Source: an uncultured Candidatus Scalindua sp.
GTDB lineage: Bacteria; Planctomycetota; Brocadiia; Brocadiales; Scalinduaceae
Direction of reading: 5' to 3'
Length of the DNA: 32,000 bases
Assembly: GCA_964344685.1 (NCBI GenBank)
Contig: CAYFOK010000007.1
Location: forward strand, 79,771 to 111,770
Of the stretch, positions 4,623-25,789 are shown in pieces (positions within the stretch are counted from its first letter, which is position 1; each line of letters opens with the position of its first letter). Both the position numbers and the translations under genes were made by a program. The notes beneath the pieces are model-generated. The model saw nothing but the letters and a program-made list of their open reading frames with translations, ran no database searches and had not been told where the DNA came from.

Positions 4623-4705
4623 GCTTTTCTAAATTGAAGTAAACTTATATGAAATATAGAAAAGGCCAAAGTACTGAGAAAAATATATAACGAGAGGAAA
4701 GGATC

Positions 4706-4891: not shown

Positions 4892-4967
4892 TTACATCAG
4901 AATATTTTATAGAAAAAATTATTAATACTTCAAATAAATAACCAGAAATGTTTATAAAGAGGTAAAT

Positions 4968-5198: not shown

Positions 5199-5648
5199 AA
5201 ACCAAATAAAAAAGCATCTAACACCTATAAGCCCCCCACACACACACACACTTTTCAAGTAAGAAACCACCCCATATGATTAACAGATCAGAATAACATT
5301 ACATAAAAGATACTATAATCGAAATCACCAAGCATATGGGCAACATGACAATCGCAATATCGATAGTGACTCTAGCAAATATAATTGCTGTAATTATTCA
5401 GTTATACAAATAGAATTTAGCACACCAACATTATAAGGAACGAAAATGTGACCCCTTGCTTGTCACAAGAAAAAGAAGAAGTAGAGTTTTTTGGTTTTAG
5501 TTCTAACTGTATTGTTTTACTTAGGCTTAAGGCCAGAATGGGGAGTATGATTTACTCCCTGTTTTGGCCTGTTTTGATTTGCTTACTTGACAATTACTTG
5601 ACAGTAATAAAGTTTACATTAGACTGCTGAAGGATTAAGAAAAGTGAA

Positions 5649-5667
5649 GGTTGTTTCTTAAAATCAA
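5649..5667 (+). repeat. third, degenerate copy of the GGTTGTTTCTTA-N-ATCAA motif
   Basis: GGTTGTTTCTTAAAATCAA. The first 12 nt are identical to 17947-17958 and the orientation matches. Confidence 0.4.
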
Positions 5668-5866
5668 TGGGGGAAAAAGAGTATAAATTAAAGCTTCAGA
5701 TAATAAGAGGATTGGGGATCAGATAAAAATAGAATAATTATAGTTTTTATGACTATTTATTTGAGAAACACATTATCAAATCATTTTTAACTTTAATAAA
5801 AAAGGTGAGATGTGACCTCGTTCAGTTGTAATATAATTAAACTTAAAAGGTTACAGCTATTCTGCA

Positions 5867-6571
5867 TTACTCTCCATCAATTTGTTCGCTGCTATGAATC
5901 GTGTAATGCCGTTCAATGAATTTTATTGTGTTCGTGAATTTAACTTTGTCCTGTTTAGGTGCTTTTTGTTGCATCTCCTTTAACATTGGCAAAAGATAGC
6001 ATTTATGTCTATTACTTCCGTTTATAAATTGGTATGCATATACCTCTTCATCAAAAATAGAGAACTTCCTCATTGGTATATCCTGATTTATAAATCCATG
6101 GTTAAGAGGGCTGACATGCAATGAAATAAGTCGCTTTGAAGCTGACGGGGTTAAGACTAAACCAATCCAGTTTTGATCTTCGCAGTATTCGTATGCTTCA
6201 AGAAAGGCTTTGCCCATAATAATCTTACTGTTATGGCCTATAATTAAATTCCCATAAGAAACAGCGCCTCTTACTGGTAATCGCTTGAGAATGCAATTTC
6301 TAATAAAACCCTTTGATTTGTTAATGAACTCAGGGTATCCAGAATCATCTGGTGATGTTGCGTAAATAATAAATGTATCCGCATAGAATGTAAAGTTTAC
6401 TAAAGACTCAAAGTGAGTTGTTTGTTTCTGTAACTTTTTTAAAACTTCGTCAATAGAATCTTTAAGGATATCTAGGTACAATGAACGGTCTTCATTGTCA
6501 ATTTTATATTTGAATCCTATAACATCAAAGTGAGCAATCCAAGTGTTGTAACTTTTCCAATTATTATCCAT
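5867..6571 (-). CDS. nucleotidyl-cyclase-like palm-domain protein (class III cyclase / GGDEF / mCpol-like fold)
   Basis: 234 aa. Motifs are spaced as in class III cyclases: HFDVIGFK (F-x-D-x-x-G-F), FYADTFIIYA (second metal Asp), LPVRGAVSYGNLIIG (R-x-G-x-x-x-G), GKAFLEAYEYCE. Recognised by eye only. Confidence 0.5.
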   Translation of the reverse strand: MDNNWKSYNTWIAHFDVIGFKYKIDNEDRSLYLDILKDSIDEVLKKLQKQTTHFESLVNFTFYADTFIIYATSPDDSGYPEFINKSKGFIRNCILKRLPVRGAVSYGNLIIGHNSKIIMGKAFLEAYEYCEDQNWIGLVLTPSASKRLISLHVSPLNHGFINQDIPMRKFSIFDEEVYAYQFINGSNRHKCYLLPMLKEMQQKAPKQDKVKFTNTIKFIERHYTIHSSEQIDGE

Positions 6572-6642
6572 GTTATTCTTTCAGCTAATGCTGAAATCAC
6601 TTGCCAAAATGCACCAACTTTTTGGACAAGTGGATTGATTTA

Positions 6643-7239
6643 TTAGGAATTTTCTTTTCTTTCGATCTCTTCTTTGTACCATTTATCTATATGTTTTGCT
6701 CCCTCAAGAGACTTAACAGATGAGGCTGTCATTCCTAGTATTAAGGCAATCTTTTGATAATTTAATCCCTCTTTTCTAAGTTTTAAAATCAAGCACCTTC
6801 GACGATAGGGAACCTCAGCAGGAGCATCTAAGCTTGCACTTTTTTCTAGAGATTTGAGTCTCTGTTCTTCCGTTTGATGAAAAATAGGAGTTCTGAAAAA
6901 TTTTCCTTCAAAATAATCCCATCCTAGTAAGTGTGCGATTAGTTCTAATAGTTCAGCTATAACATGAGGTTCGCTATTTTCTTTAACGATTTTTTTTATG
7001 TCACTTTTTAGAATATCTAGGTCAGCCAAAATTGTAGCCTTCAATATTTCATCATTAGTTACAACCTGTATAATTCTTTTTTTTATTTTTCCTATAATCT
7101 TTAAACACTCATCTTTAAAATATTTTGGATTCTGATATGCCGATGCCATATCATGGGAGCATCTGTCTTTTCCATTATACTCCCAAGATGTGATTTCCAT
7201 CTGTAAGTTATAAGGGTAACATTTTTTCTTTTTATTCAT
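6643..7239 (-). CDS. hypothetical protein with a C-terminal sigma-70 region 4 / LuxR-like HTH
   Basis: 198 aa. The C-terminal RRRCLILKLRKEGLNYQKIALILGMTASSVKSL is HTH-like. Confidence 0.5.
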   Translation of the reverse strand: MNKKKKCYPYNLQMEITSWEYNGKDRCSHDMASAYQNPKYFKDECLKIIGKIKKRIIQVVTNDEILKATILADLDILKSDIKKIVKENSEPHVIAELLELIAHLLGWDYFEGKFFRTPIFHQTEEQRLKSLEKSASLDAPAEVPYRRRCLILKLRKEGLNYQKIALILGMTASSVKSLEGAKHIDKWYKEEIERKENS

Positions 7240-7583
7240 AACAAGTTATTCAATAATTCCCAGGTAACACCACTATGGCAACGATATTCAGAAGAATCAA
7301 ATTACTATACTTCTTTATAAGGAACAATTGCAGTCTGAAATATCAAAATAGCATTTATAGCAGATTATTTTTTTAGCCTGAGTTGCAATTCACGATTCTT
7401 TACAAATTCATCAAATTCATTCTTTTGTAGGCCAAGATTTTTGTTAATTTTTATCCATTTCTATCTCCTTTATCTTGCCTACACACTTCTTTTCTGTTTA
7501 CGGTCACACCCTTTGGAGCGCTAATACCTAGCTTGATCGTGTCTCTTCATTTCATTAACAAACATTTCTTGATCATCATTTTA

Positions 7584-7982
7584 TTAAGTCCACTTTAGAT
7601 AGTCAGGTAATTCAGGGGAACCAAACTTTTCATTATATTCATCTTGAAATACCTTCTGTTTATCGAGAGCATCGTCCAGTAACCGTTTCCAATTATCCAG
7701 ATCGGTGCCAAATTGCTGAAAGTCATCGTCTACAAAATGAGCGTACCTGATAGTGCCTATTTCTAACTTTGTTGGTTTCCCCTCGACAAGGTCTTCAAAG
7801 TATAGTTTATCTCGGGTCATAGTTTTTTGTACATCTGTCCAATAGTAATGCGGTAGGTCTGATACAAATGTAAACTTTAGATAGTGTTTCTTGAAAAAAG
7901 ACTTTGCAAACACAGCGTAGACGTGAATATATTTCTCTCCCTCTTTGAAAATATCAACAAAATCTAATTTGTGGAGCCTCAT
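7584..7982 (-). CDS. hypothetical protein
   Basis: 132-aa ORF with AAGGAGG upstream of the ATG. I recognise no family. Confidence 0.5.
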   Translation of the reverse strand: MRLHKLDFVDIFKEGEKYIHVYAVFAKSFFKKHYLKFTFVSDLPHYYWTDVQKTMTRDKLYFEDLVEGKPTKLEIGTIRYAHFVDDDFQQFGTDLDNWKRLLDDALDKQKVFQDEYNEKFGSPELPDYLKWT

Positions 7983-8361
7983 TCTTTCACCTCCTTTTGC
8001 TCTCTATATTAGTTTATAGTATCTGGAATACTGGTTGTCCTGTTTTCCTGTATACGATCACCATGGCTTCCAAGTATCATCACCCTCTTTGTATGGCGTG
8101 AACAGAAAATACAAACTTAATGCCAATAACAGCCCACCGATTTTATTGCTGAAGAATATCATGGTTAACAGGGATAAAAAAACATAAAACCAAGCAAATT
8201 ATTCTAAATATTTTTATGTCTTTTTTGTTAATTATCATTGTTTTTCAAATCACCCTGTATTTCTTTTTTTCTAATTTAAAGGATACATCTAAACACCACA
8301 TTTCAACAGAAAAGCAACAACAAAAATAGCAAGCCGCCTTTAATATAAAGAGATTTTTTCT

Positions 8362-8670
8362 TTAATAATTATTCTTTTTTGTCTGAACCCATCCATATAG
8401 AAATACAAGCACGGTAATGATATTTATTACTGCCCACGCTTCACGAAATAAATGAATTGGTTCTATGGGGTTGTAGACAATAGCGATTACTATGAAGGCC
8501 ACAGTAATAAAGCCACAACCCTTTTCTTTGTAATATTGATAAGCGATATATGCAGCACACCCACAGATTGCCCAGCGCATAAGCTGATAGTAATAGTACG
8601 GCAGCGAAAGCAGTGCGATAAGTAACAAGGCTATCGGCCCAATCCATAACAGTTTATTTGTTTTTGCCAT
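8362..8670 (-). CDS. small multi-pass membrane protein
   Basis: 102 aa with three or four hydrophobic segments. Confidence 0.6.
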   Translation of the reverse strand: MAKTNKLLWIGPIALLLIALLSLPYYYYQLMRWAICGCAAYIAYQYYKEKGCGFITVAFIVIAIVYNPIEPIHLFREAWAVINIITVLVFLYGWVQTKKNNY

Positions 8671-8938
8671 GCCTTAAAATTTAATAAATGCAAAGGATAA
8701 GAAAGATACGAGAGATCTGTGCTCTATAATGAGCCTTCAATATATTCACCTAGATCTACCATTCCTTGCATGAAGTTGACACAATTACGACATGCCATAT
8801 GAGTACCTTTACATAAGTCTTCATTAATGATTTATCAAATTTGTAAAGTATGAATTTGGTGAAGATATTGACAATCACCCATTACCACGACGAGACTCTC
8901 TACGGTAATCAAGTATCTCTCGAAAGATGTCATGTTTC

Positions 8939-9856
8939 TCAAAGCCTTAAGTCATGCGACTTCATCCTCCGCCCATATTTCATGTAAAGTATCTCTCGAA
9001 GGCTGTCACGTTTCTCCCAGTATTCTAACTCTAGATGCTCAATGCCCATCTTTTTGTAACATAATGCAATATGACGGTAGCATTCTAACTTGGAATAGCT
9101 TGCATAGCTTACAACCTCAGGCTTCAGCTCTATAGCCTTCTTAAAATTCTCTATCGCCTCCTCATATAGGCTAAGCCCCTTCTGTACGTAACCAAGAGAT
9201 TGGTAGTAGAATGAATCCTTTGGATTCAGCTCTATAGCCTTCTTATAATTTTCTATTGCATCCTCATATAGACTATCCATGTGTTGTGCGTTGGCAAGTT
9301 CATAGTAGTAGTCTGCAACCTTTGAATTCAGCTCTATAGCCTTTTCATAATTTTCGATTGCATCCTCATATAGACTAAGCTTATGCTGTGCACGACCAAG
9401 GTAATAGTAGTAATCAGCAACCTCTGGATTCAACTGTATGGCTTTCTTACAATTCTCTATTGCATCATTATTTAGGCTATCCCCAATTGAACTATCTTCG
9501 TATTGTGCACGGCCAAGGTGATAGTAGTAGTCTGCAACCTCTGGATTCAGCTCTATAGCCTTCTTACAATTCGATGTTGCATCCTCATATTCACACAGAG
9601 GATATTGTGCACGGCCAAGGTAATGGTAGTAGTCTGCAACATCTGGATTCAACTGTATGGCTTTCTCACAATTCTCTATTGCCTCGTCATACTCCCCTTT
9701 TATAATATGCTCTTTCCCTTTGAAGAAATAAAAATCAGCATCTCTGACTTGTTCTAAAGCAGTAAGCCCTCTAATGACAAGTTCTTTTCGTACTTTTGGG
9801 TCGTACCTTGTAATGGCAGTCGATCTTTTTACAATAGCCTTGTTCTTCTCGGTCAT
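8939..9856 (-). CDS. tetratricopeptide (TPR) repeat protein
   Basis: 305 aa with about seven AIE(N)xKKAIELNPxxADYYYxLGxAQ units. The start codon is 1 nt after the stop of the upstream J-domain gene. Confidence 0.9.
   Translation of the reverse strand: MTEKNKAIVKRSTAITRYDPKVRKELVIRGLTALEQVRDADFYFFKGKEHIIKGEYDEAIENCEKAIQLNPDVADYYHYLGRAQYPLCEYEDATSNCKKAIELNPEVADYYYHLGRAQYEDSSIGDSLNNDAIENCKKAIQLNPEVADYYYYLGRAQHKLSLYEDAIENYEKAIELNSKVADYYYELANAQHMDSLYEDAIENYKKAIELNPKDSFYYQSLGYVQKGLSLYEEAIENFKKAIELKPEVVSYASYSKLECYRHIALCYKKMGIEHLELEYWEKRDSLREILYMKYGRRMKSHDLRL
9121..9700 (-). repeat. intragenic tandem DNA repeats (about 96-117 bp period) encoding the TPR units
   Basis: GGATTCAGCTCTATAGCCTTCTTAnAATT-type blocks recur at about 9121, 9226, 9322, 9424, 9541 and 9644. 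Confidence 0.8.
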
Positions 9857-9857
9857 A

Positions 9858-10748
9858 TTAGTATTCTACCTCTTGGATTATTTCTTTATACTCCGCAACA
9901 AGTCCATCTAGTAATGTCTGATTATCGTCGATCTCTTCTTTTATATTGTCTGCAAGTTCCTGTAGTAAATCCCTGTCCTCTTTTTTCGCATCATCAACTT
10001 TCACTTTCAATTTATAGGTCTCGTCTTCTTTCAAATCATCAAGTTCCGCATACCGTTTTGCAATAATTCCAAGAATGGTGTCATAGTCTGCCTTCAATCT
10101 GGCAAGCGTCTCCACTGGGGTCTCTTTAGCTATTTTCTCTTCTCGTTCTGCTCGACTCATATATTCTCTTAGGGTTCTTTGATCCTTATTCCTGTATGCC
10201 TCATTTATCACAGCCATGATACTATGATATTTTTTTCTCCGCTTGTCGTCTCTTGCCTTGTCTGGATGGAATTTAATAGCAAGCCTTCGATATAGTCTTT
10301 TTAGTTCTTCTTTATCTTCCGTGTTAAGAGTTGGACCACTTTCTTCTTGCTCCAGATATTCTCTATATTCATCTGCTGCCTCGGACGCCTCGCCTCCAAG
10401 ATCATTAATCTTCTGCCTTTCTTCAGTAAAAGTCTGATTTACTTCATCTTCAATGCTATCTAAATCATGTTGAGAAGTTTTTTTACCCTGAGCAAGGTCA
10501 ATCCTAAGCTGATATTCTTTCACTTTTAATTTTATTTTGTCAAGTTTCACATAAAGCAAGCCAACCCTTGAATTATATTCACCCAAGAATACATTCAATG
10601 TAATATTTATGTTCTGGACTTGGATTAATAACTCAGACGCCTCATTCTCTTTTTCCGCTATACGAGCTTTCCAAATATTTAATTCCTTCTGGACATCACC
10701 TGTAGAAGGAACTAATTTATTACCCTTTGCTTTGTTATTTTCTGCCAT
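9858..10748 (-). CDS. J-domain (DnaJ-like) protein with flanking coiled coils
   Basis: 296 aa. The central LKRLYRRLAIKFHPDKARDD...AVINEAYR segment carries the HPD tripeptide. No Gly/Phe or zinc-finger regions of full DnaJ are present. Confidence 0.85.
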   Translation of the reverse strand: MAENNKAKGNKLVPSTGDVQKELNIWKARIAEKENEASELLIQVQNINITLNVFLGEYNSRVGLLYVKLDKIKLKVKEYQLRIDLAQGKKTSQHDLDSIEDEVNQTFTEERQKINDLGGEASEAADEYREYLEQEESGPTLNTEDKEELKRLYRRLAIKFHPDKARDDKRRKKYHSIMAVINEAYRNKDQRTLREYMSRAEREEKIAKETPVETLARLKADYDTILGIIAKRYAELDDLKEDETYKLKVKVDDAKKEDRDLLQELADNIKEEIDDNQTLLDGLVAEYKEIIQEVEY

Positions 10749-11039
10749 CGTGGAAACATTTTCCGATATTTTTCAACTTAAGATTATTTTACTTACACAT
10801 AAGTAATGTCAATCATTATACTTTGCAGGAAAGTTCATCTATTTGAATCCTTAAAAGAATAAACTTAATTTATAAAAGCATATCCTACCATCTAATGGTT
10901 GATTAATTTGTAGAGTGAAGTTGCTAGCGGTATAGTAGTGAGGATAGATATCAAAATCAAGATTAAAAACAAGGACTTACGACACATTTGATTAATTTGC
11001 AAGTATTTAATAAATAAAAACTTACAAAATAGAATGTTA

Positions 11040-11058
11040 GTTGTTTCTTGGTATCAAG
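11040..11058 (+). repeat. GTTGTTTCTTGGTATCAAG: downstream copy of the ori-like 19-mer
   Basis: 18/19 identical to 17948-17966 in the same orientation. On the minus strand it reads CTTGATACCAAGAAACAAC. Confidence 0.5.
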
Positions 11059-11152
11059 GTAAAGAAAGCATGGTTACTTCACCTTTTTTATTAAATTAAA
11101 AAGATTTGGTAACATACTTCTAAAAAAAAATTTAGAAACCATAGTTTTAAAA

Positions 11153-12061
11153 CTACAATTTCTCAATTTTTATTTCATCATTAATCTTTTTTTTATCAGT
11201 AACAGAAATCTTCACTTTTTTTAATCCTTTCTTGGTCTTCACAACATAATGACCGTCAATTATACCAATGATTTTATACATGTTATTATCCTCAACCTCT
11301 AATTCTTCAGGTTCAAGTTGTGGTTCCTGAACATCATCAATAACAGTCGCAGGAGTACGAATGTTATGCTTATTCATATTATGAAAGATGTTCATAAAAC
11401 CAAATCGAAAAATCAATCCAGCACATACAACCAAACCAACAAATATTAAAATATGCTTGAACGGAATACTTTTAATCTTTTCACCTTCACCTATTATCAT
11501 TGAACAGTACATTCCAAAGACTTTTTGATCTTGTTTTATTCTTTTTGTCTTGAAGCATTCATCTCCTGAGTAGAATTTATAGGTAAAACTTTTACCAATC
11601 GAGTTAGAACGCCTTACCGCTTTTATTTCATACTCTGCCAGCTCTCTCAACTCTTTAGCAAGGCAACGAGTATCCTGGGTTATTAAATAGATATCACACC
11701 CCAAATGGCGATGCATTTGAAAGAAAAGAAAAACATTAACATCATAAAATTTTCTATGAAAATAGTTACCACTCTGCGCTTCGTCAATAATATAAATAAC
11801 ATTAGAGTTCATGCAAAAAGTCTCTTGGTATTTATTATTGAAAAATGTAGAGAGCCCACCAGCATCAGCAATGAACTTATCAAGATCATCTCCAAGTTTC
11901 ATATTCTTGATATTTGTATATACTCTTACATCAACATCTCTTGCCTTAGGAACCCATTTGTCTAATTCATCAGACCAAGTATAATAAGATTTTAATACGT
12001 GATTAACAGCATAGTACGTTTTACCGGAACCAATTTTACCTTGAATTAATCGTATGGCCAT
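11153..12061 (-). CDS. Zot / pI-type filamentous-phage assembly ATPase
   Basis: 302 aa. N-terminal P-loop IQGKIGSGKTYYAV, Walker B VIYIIDEAQ, a central TM helix (ILIFVGLVVCAGLIFRFGF) and a short C-terminal domain give the standard Zot architecture. Confidence 0.85.
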   Translation of the reverse strand: MAIRLIQGKIGSGKTYYAVNHVLKSYYTWSDELDKWVPKARDVDVRVYTNIKNMKLGDDLDKFIADAGGLSTFFNNKYQETFCMNSNVIYIIDEAQSGNYFHRKFYDVNVFLFFQMHRHLGCDIYLITQDTRCLAKELRELAEYEIKAVRRSNSIGKSFTYKFYSGDECFKTKRIKQDQKVFGMYCSMIIGEGEKIKSIPFKHILIFVGLVVCAGLIFRFGFMNIFHNMNKHNIRTPATVIDDVQEPQLEPEELEVEDNNMYKIIGIIDGHYVVKTKKGLKKVKISVTDKKKINDEIKIEKL

Positions 12062-12062
12062 T

Positions 12063-13453
12063 TTATGTTTTCCTCACAAATTTAAGTCTCTGATTTTCAA
12101 AGTCCTTCTCATTAAAGAGAATTTCGACAGAGAGAAGCAAGATTAACTCTGTTTTAGTTTTGTTGATATCCTCTGACCTGAACATTTTTCCAAGATATGG
12201 AATATCACCAAGAAGCGGTATTTTCTGATTTTTTTGTTAGAAGAATTTTCCATTAAACCACCTACATAAATTTTCTGCCCATCATTAATCAATGTAGTCA
12301 TTTCAAGTGAGTTTTTAGTAAACGATGGTGAGTCAATCAAAGGGTTTTGAACGGTTTGAACAATGTCACTGATCTCTTGACTAAGATATAATTTAACAAC
12401 ATTGTTTTCTTCAACGTCAACCTTGACGTTTAGTAAAACGCCAACGTCTCGATATTCGATATTTTCAGATCGTAAACCATTTGCAGATACAGAAGTACCT
12501 TTTCGGATAGGTTCTTCACGTCCAATTTTAATAACGGAGGTCTGACCGTCCTGGACTAATACATGTGGCTTTGAAAGAATCTCTACTTTACTTTCAGAAT
12601 TTAAAATGGTGATGAAAGTGTTTACATCTCTATGAAAAGTAAAAGCTTTGAGCCCTTTACCAGCAAGACCAGTAGTCAAAGACGTTATTCCCTCTGTTAA
12701 TAGAGATATTTGACCGCCTCTATTATTTTTCGTCCTAAAGAAGTACTCGACACCATATTGAAGAGCATCGTTTAAAGTGACTTCCATAATTGTGAATTCT
12801 ACAAGTACCTGTTTTGGCCGTTTGTCAAAGGTTTTAATAACCTCCTTAACCTTATTATAATCGTCTTTACCGGCTTTTATGATAAGTACGTTAATGCTTT
12901 TGTTTTCAGTAATAGCAATTTCCGGGAAGACATCATTCAGTAAAGATTTTAGATTTCCAGAGCTTTCATATTGCAAACGATACAGATAAACATTTTTTGT
13001 GTCATCCGGTGAAGTTTGTATATTAAGATCATTCAGGTTTTCGTTATTATGAATTCCATATAACGCACCGTTTTTTATTAGTTGATAGTTTTTACTATTT
13101 AAAACGGTACGAACCATTTTCAGAATTTCATCTCTTTTAAATTTACCTTTTATTTCGATATCAACATTACCGATCAAATCATCAACGATAATGTAATTCT
13201 CTTTGATGATTCCCATCAAAAGACTAACAACATCTTTGAGTTCAACTTTCTCAAATTGCATATCAACGTCAATACCACCTCTTTTAAGTTCGGGCTTTAC
13301 CTTGCCCTCTTTTACTTTCCATTGCCAGTTTTCGACATTTTTTGTTTTAGCCGTATTGGTAAAAAGTTTTTTCTCTGGTTTCTTTTTTATGAGCGCACAA
13401 CCCGGAGCACAAAAACATATTACAAATACTAAGACACAGATTTTTCTCAGCAT
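12063..13453 (-). CDS. pIV/GspD-type secretin, interrupted by a frameshift at an A7 tract (12229-12235)
   Basis: The secretin core is readable (VLVEFTIMEVTLNDALQYGVEYF). The annotated frame ends at 12143 in nonsense sequence. The -1 frame after the A7 run reads NQKIPLLGDIPYLGKMFRSEDINKTKTELILLLSVEIL, the canonical secretin C-terminus, and stops at 12063-12065, 1 nt before the Zot ATG. The likely start is the ATG at 13453 (AAGGAG upstream), giving the signal MLRKICVLVFVICFCAPGC. Confidence 0.85.
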
Positions 13454-13559
13454 TTTTACAGTCTCCTTTTCAATAAGGAAATTTCTGCCAGTTAAAAAAT
13501 TCACGCCAAAGGTTAAGTTTTTTTGTCATGCTTTTTAAACTTCTGGAAACGTGTTGATT

Positions 13560-13805
13560 TTAATAACAATATAAAAAACCCAAAACAAAAAGGAGTTGTG
13601 ATTTTTGTTTTGGGTTTTTTACTAAAAGATCGGGGACGTACCGGTAACTTTTTTGATGAGAGTTATAACAAACCCAACCACTCAATAAATCCTTTTTAAG
13701 TAGTTCAATACAATAAGAGAGGCTTACAACTTTTTTAAGTCTGTTATATTCATCTTTTTTACTTAGTTTGTAAGTATTAGTATTAACCTTCTTCTTAGTA
13801 ATCAT
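13560..13805 (-). CDS. hypothetical basic protein
   Basis: 81 aa with an ATGA overlap onto the upstream ORF. Its last ~20 codons are a read-through of a perfect hairpin, so the 3' end is doubtful. Confidence 0.35.
   Translation of the reverse strand: MITKKKVNTNTYKLSKKDEYNRLKKVVSLSYCIELLKKDLLSGWVCYNSHQKSYRYVPDLLVKNPKQKSQLLFVLGFLYCY
13573..13620 (-). terminator. perfect 19-bp stem / 10-nt loop hairpin flanked by A/T runs
   Basis: AAAAAACCCAAAACAAAAA ggagttgtga TTTTTGTTTTGGGTTTTTT. It looks like an intrinsic terminator on either strand. Confidence 0.5.
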
Positions 13806-14026
13806 CCCAATCCTTCATTTTTGTTCCATTCATTCATTTCCATTTCTACACATTGTTCTGCTGTTAAAGTTTTTCCACTATCCAAATACATTTCCCAACC
13901 AACTAGACCATATTCCCTATAACTTAGACCGGTAGAATCAGAAAAATCACCTTCACGCAAACCACATTTATTTCTCAAATGCATTATATATCTATCAATA
14001 AATTCTTCTTTTTCTATATCTACCAT
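13802..14026 (-). CDS. hypothetical soluble protein (phage module)
   Basis: 74 aa. The start is 1 nt after the stop of the pVI-like gene. No family recognised. Confidence 0.5.
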   Translation of the reverse strand: MVDIEKEEFIDRYIMHLRNKCGLREGDFSDSTGLSYREYGLVGWEMYLDSGKTLTAEQCVEMEMNEWNKNEGLG

Positions 14027-14027
14027 T

Positions 14028-14363
14028 TTACAACCTCACAAAAGGTATCATCCGTATAGCCATTCTGAAAGCTACAGCAGACATAATAAGTGAAAACCCT
14101 TCAACAACTTTCAGGTGTATCGCGAACCACGCCGTAATGCCTGTAAAGTTGATTAAATAGCTATTGACGCCGTAAGTACCGTCAATGGTATTTAACGTGC
14201 TCATGACTCCCTCAATGAGCATATAGATCATTCTGCTAAACAAGACCGGAACAATGGTAATTACCAGCGTCCAGATGAATAACTTCATAGCGGTGAAACG
14301 TACAACACTATAACCAACCCAACTACCAAAGGCCGAAAGTAACCAGCTTAATAATGCAGGCAT
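14028..14363 (-). CDS. pVI-like minor coat / membrane protein
   Basis: 111 aa, multi-pass and hydrophobic. It starts MPALLSWLL, compared with M13 g6p (112 aa) starting MPVLLG, and sits directly after the pIII-like gene as in Ff phages. Confidence 0.55.
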   Translation of the reverse strand: MPALLSWLLSAFGSWVGYSVVRFTAMKLFIWTLVITIVPVLFSRMIYMLIEGVMSTLNTIDGTYGVNSYLINFTGITAWFAIHLKVVEGFSLIMSAVAFRMAIRMIPFVRL

Positions 14364-14386
14364 TTTTTAGACTCCCTTGAATTTAA

Positions 14387-15604
14387 TTACACTCCCATTG
14401 CTATAAAAACAGCTCTAATAGCCATTAATCCCAATACAAAACTACCAAACAGATCAACCATCCAATCTAATGAACAAAAATCAATAGTCATGGATTTCCC
14501 AAAGAGTGTCATTGGAAGTGAACAGGTTGCACCGGTTACATTGATCTGGCTATCCGTGGCCAGAAGTACCAAAGGATTGGATGCAAGATATCCGGTAATT
14601 AAACCAGTCCAGTCCGTTTCTCCAACCTCAGAAACATCTCCCGGAAGGCTTGCGTCATAGGTTGAACTGTCCGCAGTACCTACAGAACCAGAAACAGTAC
14701 CAACAGGAATAGACCCGGTATCGTCAAGACCTGATATATCATCTATACCGTCCTGGTTAGCATCAGTAAAATTTCCTGGAGGTTGTGAAACAGGAGTTCC
14801 AGTACCACACACACCACCATAATCAATCCCAGTTTCGTCCTGATTCATAATACCGTCAAAGCAGGTTTCCGCAGGAGGACACACAAGACCAAAATTAAGC
14901 TCACACACTCCACCACAATCAACACCTGTTTCGTCTTGATTCTGGATACCATCGAAACAATCAGGCAGTTGTGGAACATCTTCTTCAAACTCATAAAAAT
15001 CAACAGCTAAATCCAAAATAGGACCTTGATCTGTTGCACCTATAGTGCCTGAATAAACATTCCCCATTCCTCCCGGAACCGGATCATTAAGAAAAGGGTC
15101 ACCGATATTAGTATCCTGAAGAAATGTATCAGTTGCACTAATTACTCCTTTCCATTTAACATCACCATTTTCATTCATATATATCCAGAAACCAACATTT
15201 GAACCGGTAATAGCATTTGCTAATGCCTGTGACATACTCGTATTAGTCAACGTTGTCCACTGTGTAGTATTTGACCAGATTGAATCCATCCCCGGTAATA
15301 CAGGATAAAACTTTTTACCATCATTTTGATTTGTATATACAATTGAATCGGTACTTGAACCAAGAAAGGTATCAATAAAATCAACCTGACCTGTTGAAGT
15401 GTTAACATTACTAATTTGTCTTAGAGCAATGTCTCCATTGTCTTTTGTAAAATACATAATTGCACCAACTGTTAACGCAGCAGCAACATTAATACCTACC
15501 CAGAGAGCAAGAGGTACGACTGCATCTGCCTTTCTGGTCTGGACATAGAAAGAAGAAAAGAGAAATGTGATAGTTAAAACAAAAACTATTAAATATTTTT
15601 TCAT
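14387..15604 (-). CDS. pIII-like adsorption / minor coat protein
   Basis: 405 aa. It has an N-terminal signal and a central duplicated Cys-rich module. The C-terminal GKSMTIDFCSLDWMVDLFGSFVLGLMAIRAVFIAMGV resembles the M13 g3p membrane-anchor region in pattern (GK..IDC...LF.G.F..L). Confidence 0.6.
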   Translation of the reverse strand: MKKYLIVFVLTITFLFSSFYVQTRKADAVVPLALWVGINVAAALTVGAIMYFTKDNGDIALRQISNVNTSTGQVDFIDTFLGSSTDSIVYTNQNDGKKFYPVLPGMDSIWSNTTQWTTLTNTSMSQALANAITGSNVGFWIYMNENGDVKWKGVISATDTFLQDTNIGDPFLNDPVPGGMGNVYSGTIGATDQGPILDLAVDFYEFEEDVPQLPDCFDGIQNQDETGVDCGGVCELNFGLVCPPAETCFDGIMNQDETGIDYGGVCGTGTPVSQPPGNFTDANQDGIDDISGLDDTGSIPVGTVSGSVGTADSSTYDASLPGDVSEVGETDWTGLITGYLASNPLVLLATDSQINVTGATCSLPMTLFGKSMTIDFCSLDWMVDLFGSFVLGLMAIRAVFIAMGV

Positions 15605-15612
15605 AATTACCT

Positions 15613-15735
15613 TTAACTATATGTAATTGTATGAATAACTTTTTTAACTACCCAAATAACCGCCAATAATCCCACGATAGTGGAAGCAAATATAAAAATC
15701 TTTGATGTGTCTATACTTATCATTGAATAATCCAT
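15613..15735 (-). CDS. 40-aa major-coat-like protein, paralog 1
   Basis: MDYSMISIDTSKIFIFASTIVGLLAVIWVVKKVIHTITYS: acidic N-terminus, one TM helix, basic C-terminus (a Pf3-type coat layout with no signal peptide). This is the internal ATG of track ORF 15613-15798. Confidence 0.55.
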   Translation of the reverse strand: MDYSMISIDTSKIFIFASTIVGLLAVIWVVKKVIHTITYS

Positions 15736-15812
15736 AGTTTTTTCCTGATAGAAGAATTTATAAAAATGTTGGCCAGCCTCTAGAAAGCCAACCAACACCC
15801 GGCAAGGAATCG

Positions 15813-15935
15813 TTAAGAACGATTAGCTAGTTTGATAACCTTTTTTACTGCCCATATGCCAGCAATAGCGGTAACTATTACACCTGCCAGAACAAGCACC
15901 TGAGTAGTATCAATGGCCAATGTACTGAAATCCAA
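15813..15935 (-). CDS. 40-aa major-coat-like protein, paralog 2 (not in the ORF track)
   Basis: My translation: (M)DFSTLAIDTTQVLVLAGVIVTAIAGIWAVKKVIKLANRS. TTG start with AAAGGGGGTG upstream. 18/40 identical, ungapped, to paralog 1. Confidence 0.5.
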   Translation of the reverse strand: MDFSTLAIDTTQVLVLAGVIVTAIAGIWAVKKVIKLANRS

Positions 15936-15964
15936 GACTATCACCCCCTTTCCTGTTATAAAGG

Positions 15965-16270
15965 TTAAACTGCGTATTTAACACACACGTAAGCCAGCAG
16001 AGAACCACAGACCACACCCGCCAGACCCATAAGGAAATTCTCTGACCATACACCCTGCAGGGATACGGAAGAGAGGAAAACATGTATTGAATTTACAGGA
16101 GCATCAATTGTCATATTGCCAGAGCACAGGAAATTCAGAGGGGTCATACCGGAAGACATTAATACATCGCCATTCACGCCATTGGAAGTGATATTGATCA
16201 GACCGTTATAATTATTAGAAGAGATAACCACGTCCGACATATCACCACAATCATAGTTAGTAATAGCCAA
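15965..16270 (-). CDS. hypothetical protein with a C-terminal TM anchor
   Basis: 101 aa. TTG start with AAGGAG 8 nt upstream. C-terminal LMGLAGVVCGSLLAYVCV. Confidence 0.45.
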   Translation of the reverse strand: MAITNYDCGDMSDVVISSNNYNGLINITSNGVNGDVLMSSGMTPLNFLCSGNMTIDAPVNSIHVFLSSVSLQGVWSENFLMGLAGVVCGSLLAYVCVKYAV

Positions 16271-16274
16271 GTTT

Positions 16275-16439
16275 TTAACTCCTTGTCATAATATTAAAAA
16301 GCCATCCAACCATCATGGAGAGAACACCAAAAGACAACACCAGAGTAAAAAAATAATCGAACATAACATTTCCGGTTATATTTACCGGAAGAATGTCCCA
16401 CACTCCACCCCAATCACCAAAAGCACCTATAACAAGCAT
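16275..16439 (-). CDS. 54-aa hydrophobic protein (not in the ORF track)
   Basis: My translation: MLVIGAFGDWGGVWDILPVNITGNVMFDYFFTLVLSFGVLSMMVGWLFNIMTRS. GGAAAGGTGTGGATT lies immediately before the ATG. It is nearly identical to the initiation region of the gene at 16774. Confidence 0.4.
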   Translation of the reverse strand: MLVIGAFGDWGGVWDILPVNITGNVMFDYFFTLVLSFGVLSMMVGWLFNIMTRS

Positions 16440-16528
16440 AATCCACACCTTTCCAATTTTAAGTTTAAGAGGGAGGCCAGGAGAATAGCTCCATGTACTA
16501 CGGAGCTAACCTCCCCCTTAAAAACAAA

Positions 16529-16774
16529 CTATTTTTGTTTACCGTTTTCTAAAGTAACACGCTTAACATCCATACGAATTTCATTCCCTGACGGAAAGAA
16601 CTTGTTGAAATCAACCTTGACAGGGTCTCCCATGTTTAGAAGCTGTTCACCTTTAACTTTCTCCACAGGAAGAAATACTCTAAACGTGTCTCCAAGATCT
16701 TTACACATCACTTTAAAACCTACTCCCTTATCAGAAGCATTTACTAAACTAGCAACCATTCCATCAACTACCAT
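16529..16774 (-). CDS. candidate ssDNA-binding protein (gV position and size)
   Basis: 81 aa from the internal ATG at 16774, preceded by GAAAGGTGGTGGATT. It is small and beta-rich-looking and lies immediately after Rep. The call rests on position and size only. Confidence 0.4.
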   Translation of the reverse strand: MVVDGMVASLVNASDKGVGFKVMCKDLGDTFRVFLPVEKVKGEQLLNMGDPVKVDFNKFFPSGNEIRMDVKRVTLENGKQK

Positions 16775-16796
16775 AATCCACCACCTTTCAAAAAAA

Positions 16797-17858
16797 TTAA
16801 ACATTATTAAAAAAATAATCAGAACCGGAATATTCATCTTCATTTTCCGGTTCTGATTCCTCTACATCGCTACCTTTAAAAAGCTTATGCCCGGCAAAAT
16901 CAATTTCTATAAGTCCAATCTTAACTGCTTCGATTACATATGAGGCCAACTCTGAGTTAATTCCGGTTTCCTTAAAGGTTTTATAGACAACGCCTTTAAG
17001 TGTTCCAAATGTCACATACTCTTTTTCTTCTTCCTGGGTAAGTTCCTCCATGTCTTCACCGCCTATGTCAGCCATGTCTTTCAGGCCGTAACAATTACCA
17101 AACTTTGAAACCATCCTTTTCCCTTTCATGTCAATAATGATTTCTTTTAATCGATCATCATTAATATCAAGACCAAACTTCATTGCATATTTTGAGATTT
17201 CCTTACCATACCCTTCTGTAACCGGCCTGATATCTGAAATCTGACCAAGACCAACTTTCAGAAGAACGTGCTCAAGGTCTTTCTTTATTGGGTCTAAGAA
17301 TGTTCCTTGTTCAGTATTCCGCATATTCACAACATGTCTATCAACGGTTAGATCGACTAACATATGAGAGTGTATATGCCATCCGGTTCCTTCTTTGTAT
17401 GTCACTTCAATATGTTCAACACCTCCACGTATATACTTTTTCCACCATGAACGCTCTTTTTTAAGCAGACTTGTTGATTTTTTGTAACATTCCAAAGCAG
17501 TCTTCAAACTATCCCTGTTTAATTCGTTTGCAGTAATGGTTAAGAGATGAGGGTTTTGCATATCTTTACCAAGTTTTTCCACCCTGCGAGACAGTATTGA
17601 CGCACGGTATGAATTGCACACCGGGCAAACTCTATCTTTACAGCGAACTTGCGGTTCAAAAAGCACACTTGATATATCTCCTTTCTTCGCTTTAACAAAA
17701 ATTGTATTCCCGCATATACCCATTCGTTTTGCTCTCGATTCCTGATCAACTTCACGAATAAGTTTTTCAATACGGAATAAAGTTTTTAACCTCCAACTAT
17801 TCTTAACGGTCACAACAGACTCTAACTTTTTCTTCTTCTTAACGGCACATTCACACAT
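16797..17858 (-). CDS. HUH rolling-circle replication initiator (pC194/pUB110 Rep_1-like)
   Basis: 353 aa. CKDRVCPVCNSYRAS (zinc-ribbon-like N-terminal motif), GWHIHSHMLVD (HUH motif) and GKEISKYAMKFG (catalytic Tyr motif) occur in the expected order. GGAGGT lies upstream of the ATG. Confidence 0.8.
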   Translation of the reverse strand: MCECAVKKKKKLESVVTVKNSWRLKTLFRIEKLIREVDQESRAKRMGICGNTIFVKAKKGDISSVLFEPQVRCKDRVCPVCNSYRASILSRRVEKLGKDMQNPHLLTITANELNRDSLKTALECYKKSTSLLKKERSWWKKYIRGGVEHIEVTYKEGTGWHIHSHMLVDLTVDRHVVNMRNTEQGTFLDPIKKDLEHVLLKVGLGQISDIRPVTEGYGKEISKYAMKFGLDINDDRLKEIIIDMKGKRMVSKFGNCYGLKDMADIGGEDMEELTQEEEKEYVTFGTLKGVVYKTFKETGINSELASYVIEAVKIGLIEIDFAGHKLFKGSDVEESEPENEDEYSGSDYFFNNV

Positions 17859-17947
17859 AAATTACCTCCAAAAAAATCATTAAAAACGGCTGAAAATTGC
17901 CACATTGTAAGTTTCAATTTTTCAATGCCTTAAAAAATCGTGTTCCG

Positions 17948-17966
17948 GTTGTTTCTTAGTATCAAG
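17948..17966 (+). repeat. GTTGTTTCTTAGTATCAAG: upstream copy of the ori-like 19-mer, candidate Rep nick site
   Basis: On the minus strand it reads CTTGATACTAAGAAACAAC, about 90 nt upstream of the Rep ATG. CTTGATA is the nick-site core of pC194/pUB110/phiX174-type origins. Confidence 0.45.
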
Positions 17967-18009
17967 TCTATAGCTTCTTTCTCACAAATGAGCCAAATTG
18001 AGGCCAAAA

Positions 18010-18059
18010 AAAAACCAGTGTTTGCGCGCGCTTGGTGAGCGTGCTCAACACTGGTTTTT
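18010..18059. other. large hairpin: 13-bp stem (AAAAACCAGTGTT / AACACTGGTTTTT) with a GC-rich 24-nt loop
   Basis: Read directly. The loop TGCGCGCGCTTGGTGAGCGTGCTC can itself pair (GAGC/GCTC). It lies in the non-coding region upstream of Rep. It could be a minus-strand origin or packaging signal. Confidence 0.5.
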
Positions 18060-18134
18060 GTAGTTGATAAATTAATTTTTTTTACTATTATATTGTTGTT
18101 ATTCTTTTTCATTGGTGAATGGGAATAATAACTA

Positions 18135-18171
18135 GGAGGGCATAAGTTGCCGCTTATGTCTTCCTTTTTTT
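18135..18171 (+). terminator. terminator-like hairpin plus T7 run
   Basis: GGAGGGCATAAG ttgccg CTTATGTCTTCC (10/12 paired) followed by TTTTTTT. Confidence 0.4.
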
Positions 18172-18206
18172 AATAATAAAACTAAAAATAACTTTGAAAA
18201 AATAAA

Positions 18207-18231
18207 ACCCACTGTCGCCAAATTGTCGCCA
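18207..18231 (+). promoter_or_regulatory. candidate integrase arm-type binding site, copy 2
   Basis: Exact 25-bp copy of 2049-2073, located 142 bp inside attR. Confidence 0.5.
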
Positions 18232-18373
18232 ACTCCAGTTAAATTGACAGTAATCAGCGTGAAATGACAGAAAACAGTTGAGAGTCTTAAGCCATTATGT
18301 TATAAGTGGTAACAGTCGTAACAGACACTTTGTCAGGCAGTTATAAAATTAACAATAAATGGTTCTACCCTCT

Positions 18374-18420
18374 CTTGGGAGCAGGAGGTCGCTGGTTCGA
18401 ATCCAGTCGCCCCGACCATT
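18374..18420 (+). repeat. attR: 47-bp partial tRNA-Pro copy
   Basis: Identical to 1962-2008. The upstream sequence does not continue the tRNA 5' half. Confidence 0.85.
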
Positions 18421-22432: not shown

Positions 22433-22687
22433 TTGTCTGCAGAGAACTTAGAGAAGGATATTACTGCTATTGTAGCTGAAGTGACTGAGCTGGATGAGAA
22501 TGAGATATGGGAGAAAAGAGATGCCGATTTTTTTAAGGATTTAGAGATAGATTCCTTATTGGCATTGGAAATTCTGGCCCTTATAGAAAAGAAATTTAAA
22601 GTTCAAATTCCGGAAGAAAAACTCGTAGATATTACATCATTGAATGCAACAATTGAAATGACAAGGTCTACACTTGAAGGAAAATAG
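22433..22687 (+). CDS. acyl carrier protein
   Basis: 84 aa with TTG start after GGGAGG. The phosphopantetheine site is in LEIDSLLALEI. Confidence 0.85.
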   Translation: MSAENLEKDITAIVAEVTELDENEIWEKRDADFFKDLEIDSLLALEILALIEKKFKVQIPEEKLVDITSLNATIEMTRSTLEGK

Positions 22688-22788
22688 AAAACGAATGTAA
22701 CACGCTTCTTACAACATCTATTTGCCTATCCGCAAACAATTAAAGCGGTCAGGCAGTGGCTATTAAATAGAACGAAAGGTTATTACTA

Positions 22789-23238
22789 ATGTTGAACTTT
22801 GAGGAAGTAAGAGAGCTGGTTCCTCAAAAATACCCCTTCTTATTTATCGACAAAGTTATTGAGCTTCAAAAAGAGAGCAGAATTGTTTGCCAGAAGAATA
22901 TCTCTGGCAACGAGTCTTTCTTCACTGGACACTTCCCTGATTTTGCCATTATGCCGGGAGTTCTAATTGTAGAAGCCCTGGCGCAAGCCTCTATTATCCT
23001 CTTCAAAAAGAGCTTTGATACTGAGCAGTATAAAGGAAAGGTCTTTTTGTTAGCTTCCGCCAACGTACGTTTTTCTAAACCTGTTTTTCCCGGTGATCAG
23101 CTATTACTGGAAATTGAAATAGAAAAGGTTATTTCCAGTGCGGCAATTGTTAAGGGAGTTGCTAAGGTGGGAGACAAAGTTGTAACAAAAGCAACTTTGA
23201 GTTTTGGTGTTGCAGACAAAGATGCATTAACAGACTGA
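22789..23238 (+). CDS. fabZ: 3-hydroxyacyl-ACP dehydratase
   Basis: 149 aa. The hot-dog signature [23 protein letters not shown] carries the catalytic His and Glu. Confidence 0.9.
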
Positions 23239-23270
23239 AAGTATTAGTATTTGCAATAAAAATAAGAACT

Positions 23271-24491
23271 ATGGATAAAAGAATTGTAATTACCGGTGTG
23301 GGTGTCATTTCTCCAATTGGAAATCAGAATGATATATTTTGGGATGCATTAATTTCCGGCACGTCCGGTGTGTCTGAGGTCACATCATTCGACACTACTC
23401 CTTTTAAAGTACATAGAGGCTGTTTCGTCAAAGATTTCAATTATGATAGTTATATAAGTAATGGTTCAAGCCGGGAGATCGGTAAAGGCTCTCAATTTGC
23501 CGTTGCTGCAGCAAAGCTCGCTATTGATGACTCTAATATAGGTTTAAACAATATCGATCCGGAACGGGCAGGCGTTTCAATTGGAACAACTGCTGGTGAA
23601 ATTCAGATTCTGGAAAAAGTAAACTATATTAGGCACGAGAAGGGAGATGAAAATGTCGATCCCAGCCTGTTCCTTAAACACCCATGCGTAAATATGCCAT
23701 CTAACATATCTATTGAATTTGGTTTTAAGGGGCCAAGCACTATAATTCCTACTGCATGTGCAGCTGGAAACTATGCTATCGGTTATGCATGTGACTTGAT
23801 AAAATTAGGAAGAACAGACATAATGCTGGCCGGAGGCTCAGATCCGTTTTCTAAAGTGGCTTTTGTTGGTTTTAGCAGATTAAACGCAATCGCTCCGGAG
23901 ATTTGTCAGCCATTTGATAAAGACAGAAAAGGCCTGTTAGTTGGTGAAGGTGCCGGAATGCTGGTATTGGAATCCCTGGAAGGTGCACTGGCAAGAAATG
24001 CAAACATATATGCAGAAATCCTGGGTTACGGCCTGAGCTGTGACGGATATCACATAACAATTCCGCATCCGGAAGGAAATGGTGTTACTTCGGCAATGGA
24101 AAAGGCTTTGCAAAATGCCAAAATCAGTCCCGAAGATGTGCAATATATGAGTGCACATGGTACTGGAACGGTAGCCAACGACAAAGCTGAAACAATATCA
24201 ATAAAGAAAGTCTTTGGTGAACATGCAAAGAACCTGGCCATAAGCTCTATAAAATCAATGCTTGGTCATACAATGGGAGCTGCCAGTGCCATAGAGGCTA
24301 TTGCGTGCGCTTTAGCCATTAAAGAGAGTGTTGTACCACCAACTATAAACTATGAGACAAAAGACCCTGAGTGTGACCTTGATTTTGTACCTAATGTCAA
24401 ACGTGAAATGCAGGTTGATGTTGCTATGAATAACGCTTATGCTTTTGGTGGCAACAATAGCAGCCTCATACTAAAGAAGTACACAGGTTAA
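23271..24491 (+). CDS. fabF: beta-ketoacyl-ACP synthase II
   Basis: 406 aa with an intact Cys-His-His triad: [25 protein letters not shown]. Confidence 0.9.
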
Positions 24492-24535
24492 AAATAAGAA
24501 TTAAGATAAAAATTTTTTAGAGGTTAATTTGATAT

Positions 24536-25771: not shown

Positions 25772-25789
25772 CTTCAAGCGACAGTTTTC

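Follow-up and report, generated by a model that had tools for sequence, protein, structure and literature searches.

The Ff filamentous phages (M13, f1, and fd) encode a replication initiator, a single-stranded DNA (ssDNA)-binding protein (gV), small hydrophobic proteins, a coat protein, a large anchored adsorption protein (pIII), the pVI protein, the morphogenesis ATPase pI, and a phage secretin (pIV). A similar set of genes is present in a 32,000-nt stretch of DNA (hereafter, the window) from an uncultured Candidatus (Ca.) Scalindua sp. (GenBank assembly GCA_964344685.1, contig CAYFOK010000007.1, positions 79,771 to 111,770). With a probability of roughly 85%, this region represents an integrated filamentous phage genome (inovirus, Tubulavirales) in the Ca. 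Scalindua chromosome. An initial annotation of the window had recognized twelve minus-strand open reading frames (ORFs) at 11153–17858 and had described their order as that of the Ff phages, except that the secretin gene precedes the pI gene. Every one of these ORFs is recovered with the same place and size, and the order is as described. The likeness to Ff comprises an initiator, a protein of ssDNA-binding size, small hydrophobic proteins, coat-like proteins, a large anchored adsorption-type protein, a pVI-like protein of ~111 aa, and pI together with a phage secretin.

There are several differences between the two. The initiator (Rep) belongs to the Rep_1 (pC194) family and not to the gpII family, the coat-like proteins are two paralogues that have no signal peptide, and a tyrosine integrase would have mediated integration of the element. 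Searches with Pfam, PHROGs, and Foldseek detect no sequence homology to g3p, g5p, g7p, g8p, or g9p. The coat protein of Pf3, a Pseudomonas inovirus, is a leaderless polypeptide of ~40–44 aa with an acidic N-terminus, a hydrophobic core, and a basic C-terminus. The 40-aa proteins of the window share this layout; the likeness is one of architecture, and the gene is duplicated here.

CTXphi-type phages are likewise chromosomally integrated filamentous prophages with a Zot-domain pI and adjacent partial copies, the latter being paralleled by a second origin–Rep unit in Ca. S. japonica. If the secretin lesion described below is real, a possible dependence on a host secretin would be a further point in common. 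In contrast, CTXphi uses XerCD at dif and has neither a secretin nor an integrase, whereas the present element has a tyrosine integrase, a tRNA attachment (att) site, and relatives with a secretin of their own. The pC194 and pUB110 plasmids share with it the Rep_1 domain, its HUH and Tyr motifs, and the CTTGATA sequence upstream of rep; they differ in that here the replicon would drive a phage morphogenesis module, with nicking being predicted.

Inoviruses of planctomycetes have been detected computationally before. Roux et al. 2019 (PMC6813254, supplementary file 6) report five inovirus detections in Planctomycetes, the example being an integrated prophage in BAFH01000003 of strain KSU-1. IMG/VR holds at least nine contigs of the present clade (L021–L029) with the same gene order and with pI 50–84% identical. 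We take strain KSU-1 to be the anammox bacterium Ca. Jettenia caeni. The present phage is a distant further member of a type already detected computationally in anammox genomes, and the novelty implied by the initial annotation is lower in view of these Planctomycetes prophages and of the clade members already in IMG/VR. The earlier entries are likewise computationally detected inovirus prophages, catalogued without a described anatomy, to which the present window adds host flanks, att sites, an origin, and a comparison with empty sites. The statement that no experimentally characterized filamentous phage is known for anammox bacteria holds, as full-text searches found none; the same kind of search found no paper linking filamentous phages with Scalindua.

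Gene Content and Conservation

Related loci and contigs used for comparison are designated by L-numbers. L013 is Ca. Scalindua japonica BAOS01000027, L021–L029 are the IMG/VR contigs, L008 is Ca. Brocadia carolinensis, L010 is Brocadia sp. WS118, and L005 and L004 are metagenome-assembled genomes (MAGs) labeled Anaerolineae and Alphaproteobacteria, respectively. L007, L028, and L029 are distant relatives, L017 is a metagenome relative, and L039, L042, L043, L044, and L046 are related metagenome contigs. Pfam gathering scores served as the acceptance limit (33.2 bits for Rep_1 and 20.3 bits for Zot), the conservation of small ORFs across the related loci was assessed by tblastn, and ratios of nonsynonymous to synonymous substitution rates (dN/dS) were computed for nine genes of the core against L013 and L017.

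The profile matches of Rep, the secretin, and the Zot-domain ATPase, set beforehand as the deciding check, all lie above the gathering scores. By the genomic definition used in large-scale inovirus mining, the region has a pI-like ATPase with a Zot domain and a transmembrane segment, small single-transmembrane proteins between the replication and morphogenesis genes (54, 101, 40, 40, and 111 aa), and a rolling-circle replication initiator (Rep_1 with HUH and Tyr motifs). Gene order is identical in more than 20 independent contigs, which include Ca. S. japonica, Scalindua MAGs, metagenome contigs, and IMG/VR contigs. All nine genes tested are under purifying selection, with dN/dS values of 0.02–0.28. 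On sequence grounds, the module is far beyond chance, given Pfam and PHROGs E-values of about 1e-13 to 7.5e-50 and a gene order that recurs in more than 20 contigs.

The DNA block common to the Scalindua contigs measures ~7.1 kb and extends from about 11100–11143 to 18202, past the start of Rep. Only this block is conserved, and its flanks are different in every relative. The functional unit is therefore larger than the extent of 11153–17858 originally assigned, as it reaches the origin (~18202) and forms part of a 16.4-kb island at a tRNA-Pro gene. The genes of the core are tightly packed, with 12 co-oriented ORFs in 6.7 kb. However, the 1-nt gaps or 4-nt overlaps that had been reported between most genes are found at 3 of the 11 junctions, and the other gaps measure 4–106 nt. 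The features of the core and of the island are collected in Table 1.

Table 1. Features of the phage core and the surrounding island (positions in the window).
Feature	Position	Strand	Basis or remark
tRNA-Pro(UGG), intact	1929-2006	+	ARAGORN; Rfam 64 bits
attL, 3' part of tRNA-Pro	1957-2008	+	52-nt direct repeat D4
Tyrosine integrase, intact ORF, motifs HDLRH and RYAHL	2013-3158	-	PF00589, 2.7e-35
Arm-type repeat candidate, exact 25 nt, ACCCACTGTCGCCAAATTGTCGCCA	2049-2073 and 18207-18231	+	repeat D9, 100%
HTH_17 protein, excisionase-like, directly upstream of integrase	3130-3396	-	PF12728, 1.5e-11
Two-gene cassette, 148 aa and 74 aa, candidate toxin-antitoxin cargo	3976-4622	+	PIN E=0.018, below threshold
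TPR protein, cargo	8939-9856	-	TPR_11, 5.8e-40
DnaJ-domain protein, cargo	9858-10748	-	Pfam DnaJ, 5.4e-7
Second nick-site 19-mer, CTTGATACCAAGAAACAAC	11040-11058	-	18/19 bases identical to 17948-17966
pI/Zot-type morphogenesis ATPase, 302 aa	11153-12061	-	PF05707, phrog_197
Secretin (pIV-like)	12063-13453; ORF as read 12143-13453 (453 aa)	-	PF00263, Secretin_N, GspD N0
81-aa basic protein	13560-13805	-	variable slot
74-aa acidic protein	13802-14026	-	variable slot
pVI-like minor virion or membrane protein, 111 aa	14028-14363	-	phrog_974
pIII-like adsorption protein (putative), 405 aa	14387-15604	-	architecture and gene position
40-aa coat-like paralogues, leaderless	15813-15935 and 15613-15735	-	charge/hydrophobicity layout
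101-aa small protein, C-terminal transmembrane segment	15965-16270	-	Ff pVII/pIX position
54-aa small protein, C-terminal transmembrane segment	16275-16439	-	Ff pVII/pIX position
81-aa OB-fold protein, candidate ssDNA-binding (gV analogue)	16529-16774	-	predicted structure
Rep, rolling-circle initiator, Rep_1 (pC194/pUB110) family	16797-17858	-	PF01446
Non-coding origin region	17859-18202	-	conserved in alignment with five relatives
attR, duplicated 3' part of tRNA-Pro	18369-18420	+	repeat D4, 96% identity

pI ATPase and Secretin

The pI protein matches PF05707 with 54.5 bits (E = 1.4e-14) and the Zot-like PHROGs family with 4.7e-32. Its Walker A residues (G8..K14-T15) and Walker B residues (D93-E94) are invariant, and its layout is that of a P-loop domain followed by a single transmembrane helix (~196–226) and a C-terminal tail of ~80 aa. 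The gene has dN/dS values of 0.07–0.12.

The secretin matches the PHROGs family annotated as "protein IV of M13" with 7.5e-50, and searches against chains of the Protein Data Bank (PDB) return GspD and f1 pIV (7OFH, 2e-14). Its N-terminal signal (13400–13453) ends in ...FCAPGC followed by ALIKKK, a lipobox-like arrangement by which the secretin may be lipidated and self-piloting.

The initial annotation had called the module complete, which is overstated because the secretin is frameshifted in the present copy. The ORF stops at 12143, and the canonical C-terminus, IPLLGDIPYLGKMFRSEDINKTKTEL..., continues in the -1 frame down to 12063, 1 nt before pI. The lesion is a 1-nt deletion (A4 versus A5) at 12221–12224; in an alignment with nine relatives, these have AGAAAAATACCG or a near variant where the window reads AGAAAATACCG. 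In about 20 relatives examined by tblastn, the two pieces are contiguous and encode 462–463 aa. Adding one A at 12221–12224 yields 462 aa, with the end 1 nt before pI as in the relatives, and extends the Pfam Secretin match from profile positions 2–137 of 169 (87 bits) to 2–168 of 169 (134 bits). Programmed frameshifting at a conserved recoding site was considered and rejected, since the ORF is uninterrupted in every relative.

Beyond the shift, amino acid identity to close relatives is still 90–97%; thus, the lesion is either very recent or an artifact. It is possible, but on balance doubtful, that the prophage is fully intact and potentially active and that the frameshift is a sequencing or assembly error in the short A run. 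The absence of decay after the shift argues for such an error, the downstream segment retaining both its identity and the 1-nt gap to pI in the shifted frame, as do the single-base nature of the lesion in a homopolymer and the intactness of the integrase and all other core ORFs. However, a metagenome contig from the European Nucleotide Archive (ENA; L001, 1810 nt, 100% identical) carries the same deletion, possibly derived from the same reads, and an A4/A5 run is shorter than those in which homopolymer errors typically arise. In other populations, this att site holds decayed remnants of pI (L040 and L047), which shows that these prophages do erode. If the sequence is correct, the prophage would be defective for its own export pore or dependent on a borrowed host secretin.

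Replication Initiator and Origin

Rep matches PF01446 with 49 bits (E = 7.1e-13). The motifs HIHSH (HUH) and ISKYAMK (catalytic Tyr) are present and are kept across the Scalindua relatives, and the gene has a dN/dS of 0.11. Upstream of Rep lies a conserved, non-coding origin region of 344 nt. It harbors a hairpin at 18134–18165, followed by a large one at about 18006–18059; the DNA fold z-score of the region is -2.6, and a terminator-like hairpin is present.

On the 3' side of the hairpins, an 18-nt block, TAGACTTGATACTAAGAA, is invariant in the aligned Scalindua relatives and holds the heptamer CTTGATA at 17960–17966. The heptamer lies 108 nt before the Rep ATG here and 107–108 nt before it in all aligned Scalindua relatives, and it also occurs 65–93 nt upstream of Rep in the distant L007, L028, and L029. 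CTTGATA is the nick consensus of the double-strand origin (dso) of Rep_1-type initiators such as that of pC194 (PMC10378824). Since the heptamer by itself is frequent (17 matches in the AT-rich window), the argument for a putative nick site is built on position and invariance, which mark the copy upstream of Rep as a candidate. An ORF within the same region (orf60, 17930–18112) is probably not a gene; it overlaps the conserved hairpins and the nick site and is not kept as an ORF in relatives.

The nick-site 19-mer that includes this heptamer (17948–17966) recurs beyond the other end of the module. The two copies are in direct orientation, 6908 nt apart, and bracket the phage genes. The second copy lies 95 nt beyond the pI stop and closes a block of ~190 nt (10867–11059) that is 79% identical to L018 2–196. 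The L018 block has the opposite orientation and precedes an origin-like hairpin, ~1.2 kb upstream of the conserved block of that phage. In relatives other than L018, the block is absent 3' of pI. The second 19-mer may be the remnant of a neighboring or tandem origin. Termination at this copy, by which Rep would release a core-sized circle, is doubtful because the origin hairpins would stay outside the circle.

Additional phage sequences occur next to the core in some relatives. In Ca. S. japonica (L013), a partial second unit (673–3838) lies upstream of the complete phage (4047–10909) and consists of an origin, a gene for a Rep of 328 aa, part of the intergenic region that precedes the secretin gene, an HTH_17 gene, and an integrase gene. 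By analogy, it resembles a tandem or satellite arrangement such as that of RS1 and CTXphi. In L017–L020, a stray 3' fragment of pI is found 2 kb downstream.

Candidate Virion and ssDNA-Binding Proteins

The 111-aa protein that had been called pVI-like falls into a PHROGs minor virion (coat) family (3.9e-9), which bears out the assignment. It is kept in all relatives, down to 25% identity, and has a dN/dS of 0.03.

The 405-aa protein had been read as pIII-like with a g3p-like anchor. Its position, architecture, and C-terminal anchor agree with that reading, and no sequence or fold match to g3p accompanies them. A signal peptide is followed by a beta-rich N-terminal domain that varies among relatives, by two Cys-rich repeats, by an acidic, low-confidence linker, and by a conserved C-terminal hairpin with a transmembrane anchor. 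The repeats (residues ~216–266) have the pattern CxDGxxNQDETGxDxGGxC, CFDGIQNQDETGVDCGGVC and CFDGIMNQDETGIDYGGVC; they match no Pfam model and resemble, at 40–70% local identity, segments of many surface proteins from DPANN archaea, CPR/Patescibacteria, Omnitrophica, and Flavobacteriales. The dN/dS of 0.25–0.28 is the highest of the module, as expected for a receptor-binding protein.

The initial annotation had also singled out a protein of the size of gV. Size and place agree, and an OB fold is predicted; the assignment is made by fold, no g5p entry being among the top structural matches. The AF2 model (pLDDT of 88.9) is a five-stranded barrel, and Foldseek places it nearest to OB folds from binders of single-stranded nucleic acid, including Teb1 OB-B (TM 0.73), cold-shock proteins, and RPA on ssDNA. 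A start that would give 104 aa was rejected in favor of 81 aa; the 53 homologues are nearly all 76–86 aa long, and none reaches far enough upstream. The protein matches no Pfam or PHROGs family, and a Foldseek search of BFVD returns generic OB and cold-shock domain (CSD) matches and no inovirus gVp. On the strength of the model, it is plausible that the 81-aa protein is a functional analogue of gV, as distinct from a demonstrated homologue.

The 54-aa and 101-aa proteins have no family match in PHROGs and other profile searches; they are 82–96% conserved in relatives, with dN/dS values of 0.08–0.15. The two 40-aa proteins both run from an acidic N-terminus through a hydrophobic core to a basic C-terminus. 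They are 93–97% conserved in relatives (dN/dS of 0.02–0.15) and present as a single copy in distant relatives.

Between pVI and the secretin lies a variable slot. Its 74-aa ORF is confined to this window, and its 81-aa ORF is shared only with L022–L024; neither protein has a family match. A perfect 20-nt inverted repeat, TAAAAAACCCAAAACAAAAA / TTTTTGTTTTGGGTTTTTTA, occupies 13572–13621 in the 3'-terminal part of this 81-aa ORF, shortly before the secretin gene, and may be a terminator or regulatory hairpin.

Proposed Replication and Extrusion

In the proposed scheme, site-specific recombination placed the island in the 3' end of tRNA-Pro; the island carries, besides the phage core at one of its ends, cargo, an excisionase-like HTH protein, and the tyrosine integrase. 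Rep would nick at the origin and drive rolling-circle synthesis of ssDNA, which the OB-fold protein would coat. Four small membrane proteins are encoded in the core, two of which would be leaderless, Pf3-like coat paralogues. The pIII-like protein would form the tip and serve in adsorption, with the pVI-like protein beside it. Finally, the outer-membrane secretin and the inner-membrane pI/Zot ATPase would extrude the filament without lysis.

The tRNA-Pro Island

The core is located at one end of an island (2009–18420) that begins at an intact tRNA-Pro gene, the only match returned by Rfam. A scan of metagenomes with the right-flank dehydrogenase (ADH) protein, for which an exact look-up gave no record, yielded empty sites in L039, L042, L043, L044, and L046. 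These contigs, with ~80% nucleotide identity in the flanks, run directly from the left flank through one tRNA-Pro into the right-flank dehydrogenase gene and have no island. Because five related contigs join the flanks in this manner, 2009–18420 (16.4 kb) is an insertion. As in tyrosine-integrase prophages at tRNA genes, the integrase gene adjoins the tRNA, the tRNA 3' end is directly repeated at the opposite boundary, and relatives show an empty site.

The exact 25-nt repeat contains TGTCGCCA twice. One copy lies within the 3' coding end of the integrase gene, and the other starts 5 nt past the conserved phage block, 138 nt to the left of attR. These are candidate arm-type integrase sites, to judge from their placement, and in an excised circle they would flank the att core at distances of 41 nt and 138 nt.

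Whether the phage uses this integrase bears on the nature of the island. It may be composite, with the integrase-bearing tRNA-Pro island and its own cargo being one element, the 7.1-kb inovirus core a separate one that entered it or its vicinity (e.g., by Rep- or Xer-mediated integration), and the integrase not that of the phage. This alternative is not favored but has several observations on its side. The conserved block and its changing flanks agree with it, as do the second 19-mer, which bounds the core on the pI side, the L017–L020 cores without a nearby integrase, and L041 and L045, in which the arm/attR region is beside unrelated genes and has no inovirus origin adjacent to it. L047 (2730–5941) has a 3.1-kb mini-island at the same tRNA-Pro with fragments of the present cargo.

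In contrast, related tyrosine integrases are encoded within a few kb of pI in L006, L008, L010, L013, L014, and L034–L038. A homologue of the HTH_17 protein (51% identical) adjoins the integrase in L006, and in L010 the integrase is downstream of pI, with a tRNA-Asp directly beyond it. In Ca. S. japonica, the HTH–integrase pair immediately precedes the phage origin, an arrangement that circularization of the present island would also produce. A degenerate pI in L040 (1405–2052) directly abuts the same arm/attR sequence, and the mini-island of L047 also holds a short pI remnant before the right-flank gene. The conserved block ends 5 nt from an arm-type repeat, and the 3976–4622 cassette recurs near pI in an IMG/VR contig. 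No tRNA-Pro att fragment is found in the relatives' loci, and no direct repeats flank the core in L017. Taken together, we favor one integrative phage with variable cargo over a composite island. The tRNA-Pro site is, to judge from the states seen in L040, L047, L041, and L045, a hotspot at which such prophages erode.

The two products of the 3976–4622 cassette have counterparts, 88% and 97% identical, that are encoded downstream of pI in the IMG/VR contig L023 (5104–5877), whose pI is only 56% identical. This suggests that the cassette, possibly a toxin-antitoxin pair, was recently exchanged. An MqsA-like ORF (4968–5198; E = 0.0016, below threshold) is located near it. The DnaJ and TPR genes directly follow pI, and neither is found beside the core in relatives. 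PADLOC detects no defense system in the cargo.

Host and Relatives

The assignment of the host as an anammox planctomycete is confirmed. The flanking FabF and B12 radical-SAM proteins fall into 90%-identity clusters in which the named members are Candidatus Scalindua or Scalinduaceae proteins and are encoded on the same 211,183-nt contig as pI, and pI itself is 90% identical to SCALIN_C27_0021 of Ca. Scalindua japonica. The host operon (22433–28698) encodes an acyl carrier protein (ACP), FabZ, two FabF proteins, a CrtI-family oxidoreductase, and the B12 radical-SAM protein. The latter was rejected as the "ladderane" TIGR04072 equivalog, with 86 bits against a cutoff of 360. Since this match falls short of membership, the host call is grounded in sequence identity. 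Hydrazine-synthase genes do not occur within the window. Beyond the operon, a 663-aa protein encoded on the minus strand (28823–30814) has a caspase domain of the EACC1-associated type (NCBIfam 2.3e-12; PADLOC caspase 2.2e-13), and its gene has internal 89-nt repeats at 29501–29757.

The clade recurs in many metagenome assemblies, with one pI variant being indexed in 60 blocks of the assembly collection. Distant relatives, with pI 37–49% identical, are found in two Ca. Brocadia genomes and in one Nitrospinae, one Nitrospirae, and one unclassified Planctomycetota MAG. In the freshwater anammox genomes L008 and L010, pI is 37–38% identical, a 600-aa secretin directly follows the gV-like gene, and Rep is different (24% in alignment). 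Close relatives also appear in MAGs of unrelated phyla, namely, L005 (3.3 kb, pI 90% identical) and L004 (16 kb, pI 58%). Mis-binning may explain their placement, and the 3.3-kb contig in particular may well have been binned wrongly; bins of this kind are, therefore, not a reliable basis for host calls.

Weighing the Prophage Assignment

Several observations weigh against an inovirus prophage. As read, the secretin lacks the complete C-terminal domain. The OB-fold matches of the gV-like protein are generic, with E ~0.03 and no inovirus gVp among the top hits. The pIII-like protein has no match in Pfam, PHROGs, or NCBIfam and no homology to the N1/N2 or C-terminal domains of g3p, and its partly confident model (mean pLDDT of 62) finds nothing below E = 0.7 in a Foldseek search of the PDB. 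Among deposited phages, the nearest are Vibrio and Pseudomonas inoviruses, whose pI is 24–28% identical, and no Rep match is found among GenBank phages. The L017–L020 cores have no integrase within 4–10 kb, so that the link between integrase and phage is not universal. A terminal-overlap check identified no circular or episomal contig among close relatives, and direct signs of replication or packaging are thus missing; the distant L037 alone has a terminal overlap (40 nt).

A non-viral nature of the region, as a piece of a host type II secretion system (T2SS) or type IV pilus (T4P) or as an integrated rolling-circle plasmid with a secretin and a Zot-like ATPase, is very improbable: the secretin does match GspD more strongly than f1 pIV (PDB and NCBIfam), Rep_1 is best known from plasmids (PMC10378824), and a virion is predicted here from genes, but no other T2SS or T4P genes are present, the PHROGs pIV family is matched alongside those of pI and the pVI-like protein, the co-oriented small single-transmembrane proteins between Rep and pI are an inovirus signature under purifying selection, and relatives are catalogued in IMG/VR. 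An integrated filamentous phage remains the preferred reading of the locus.

Implications for Anammox Bacteria

In marine oxygen-minimum zones, much of the loss of fixed nitrogen is due to Scalindua, and to our knowledge almost nothing is known about its viruses. Against this background, the clade is a concrete candidate for chronic, non-lytic infection of anammox bacteria because it recurs in many metagenome assemblies and in the Ca. S. japonica genome. It is unlikely, when taken as a whole, that the clade represents an active, chronically replicating marine anammox phage that is extruded via its own lipoprotein-type secretin, that adsorbs by a protein with Cys-rich modules like those of DPANN and CPR, and whose Rep frees a core-sized ssDNA circle between the 19-nt nick sites (17966 and 11058) without an integrase, a CTXphi-like escape with a minimal terminator.

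No concept is changed by the element, as inoviruses have already been predicted in nearly all bacterial phyla, Planctomycetes included. The phage-encoded secretin is consistent with an outer membrane of the Gram-negative type in anammox cells. In addition, the phage may offer a basis for genetic tools in anammox bacteria, a group that has none.

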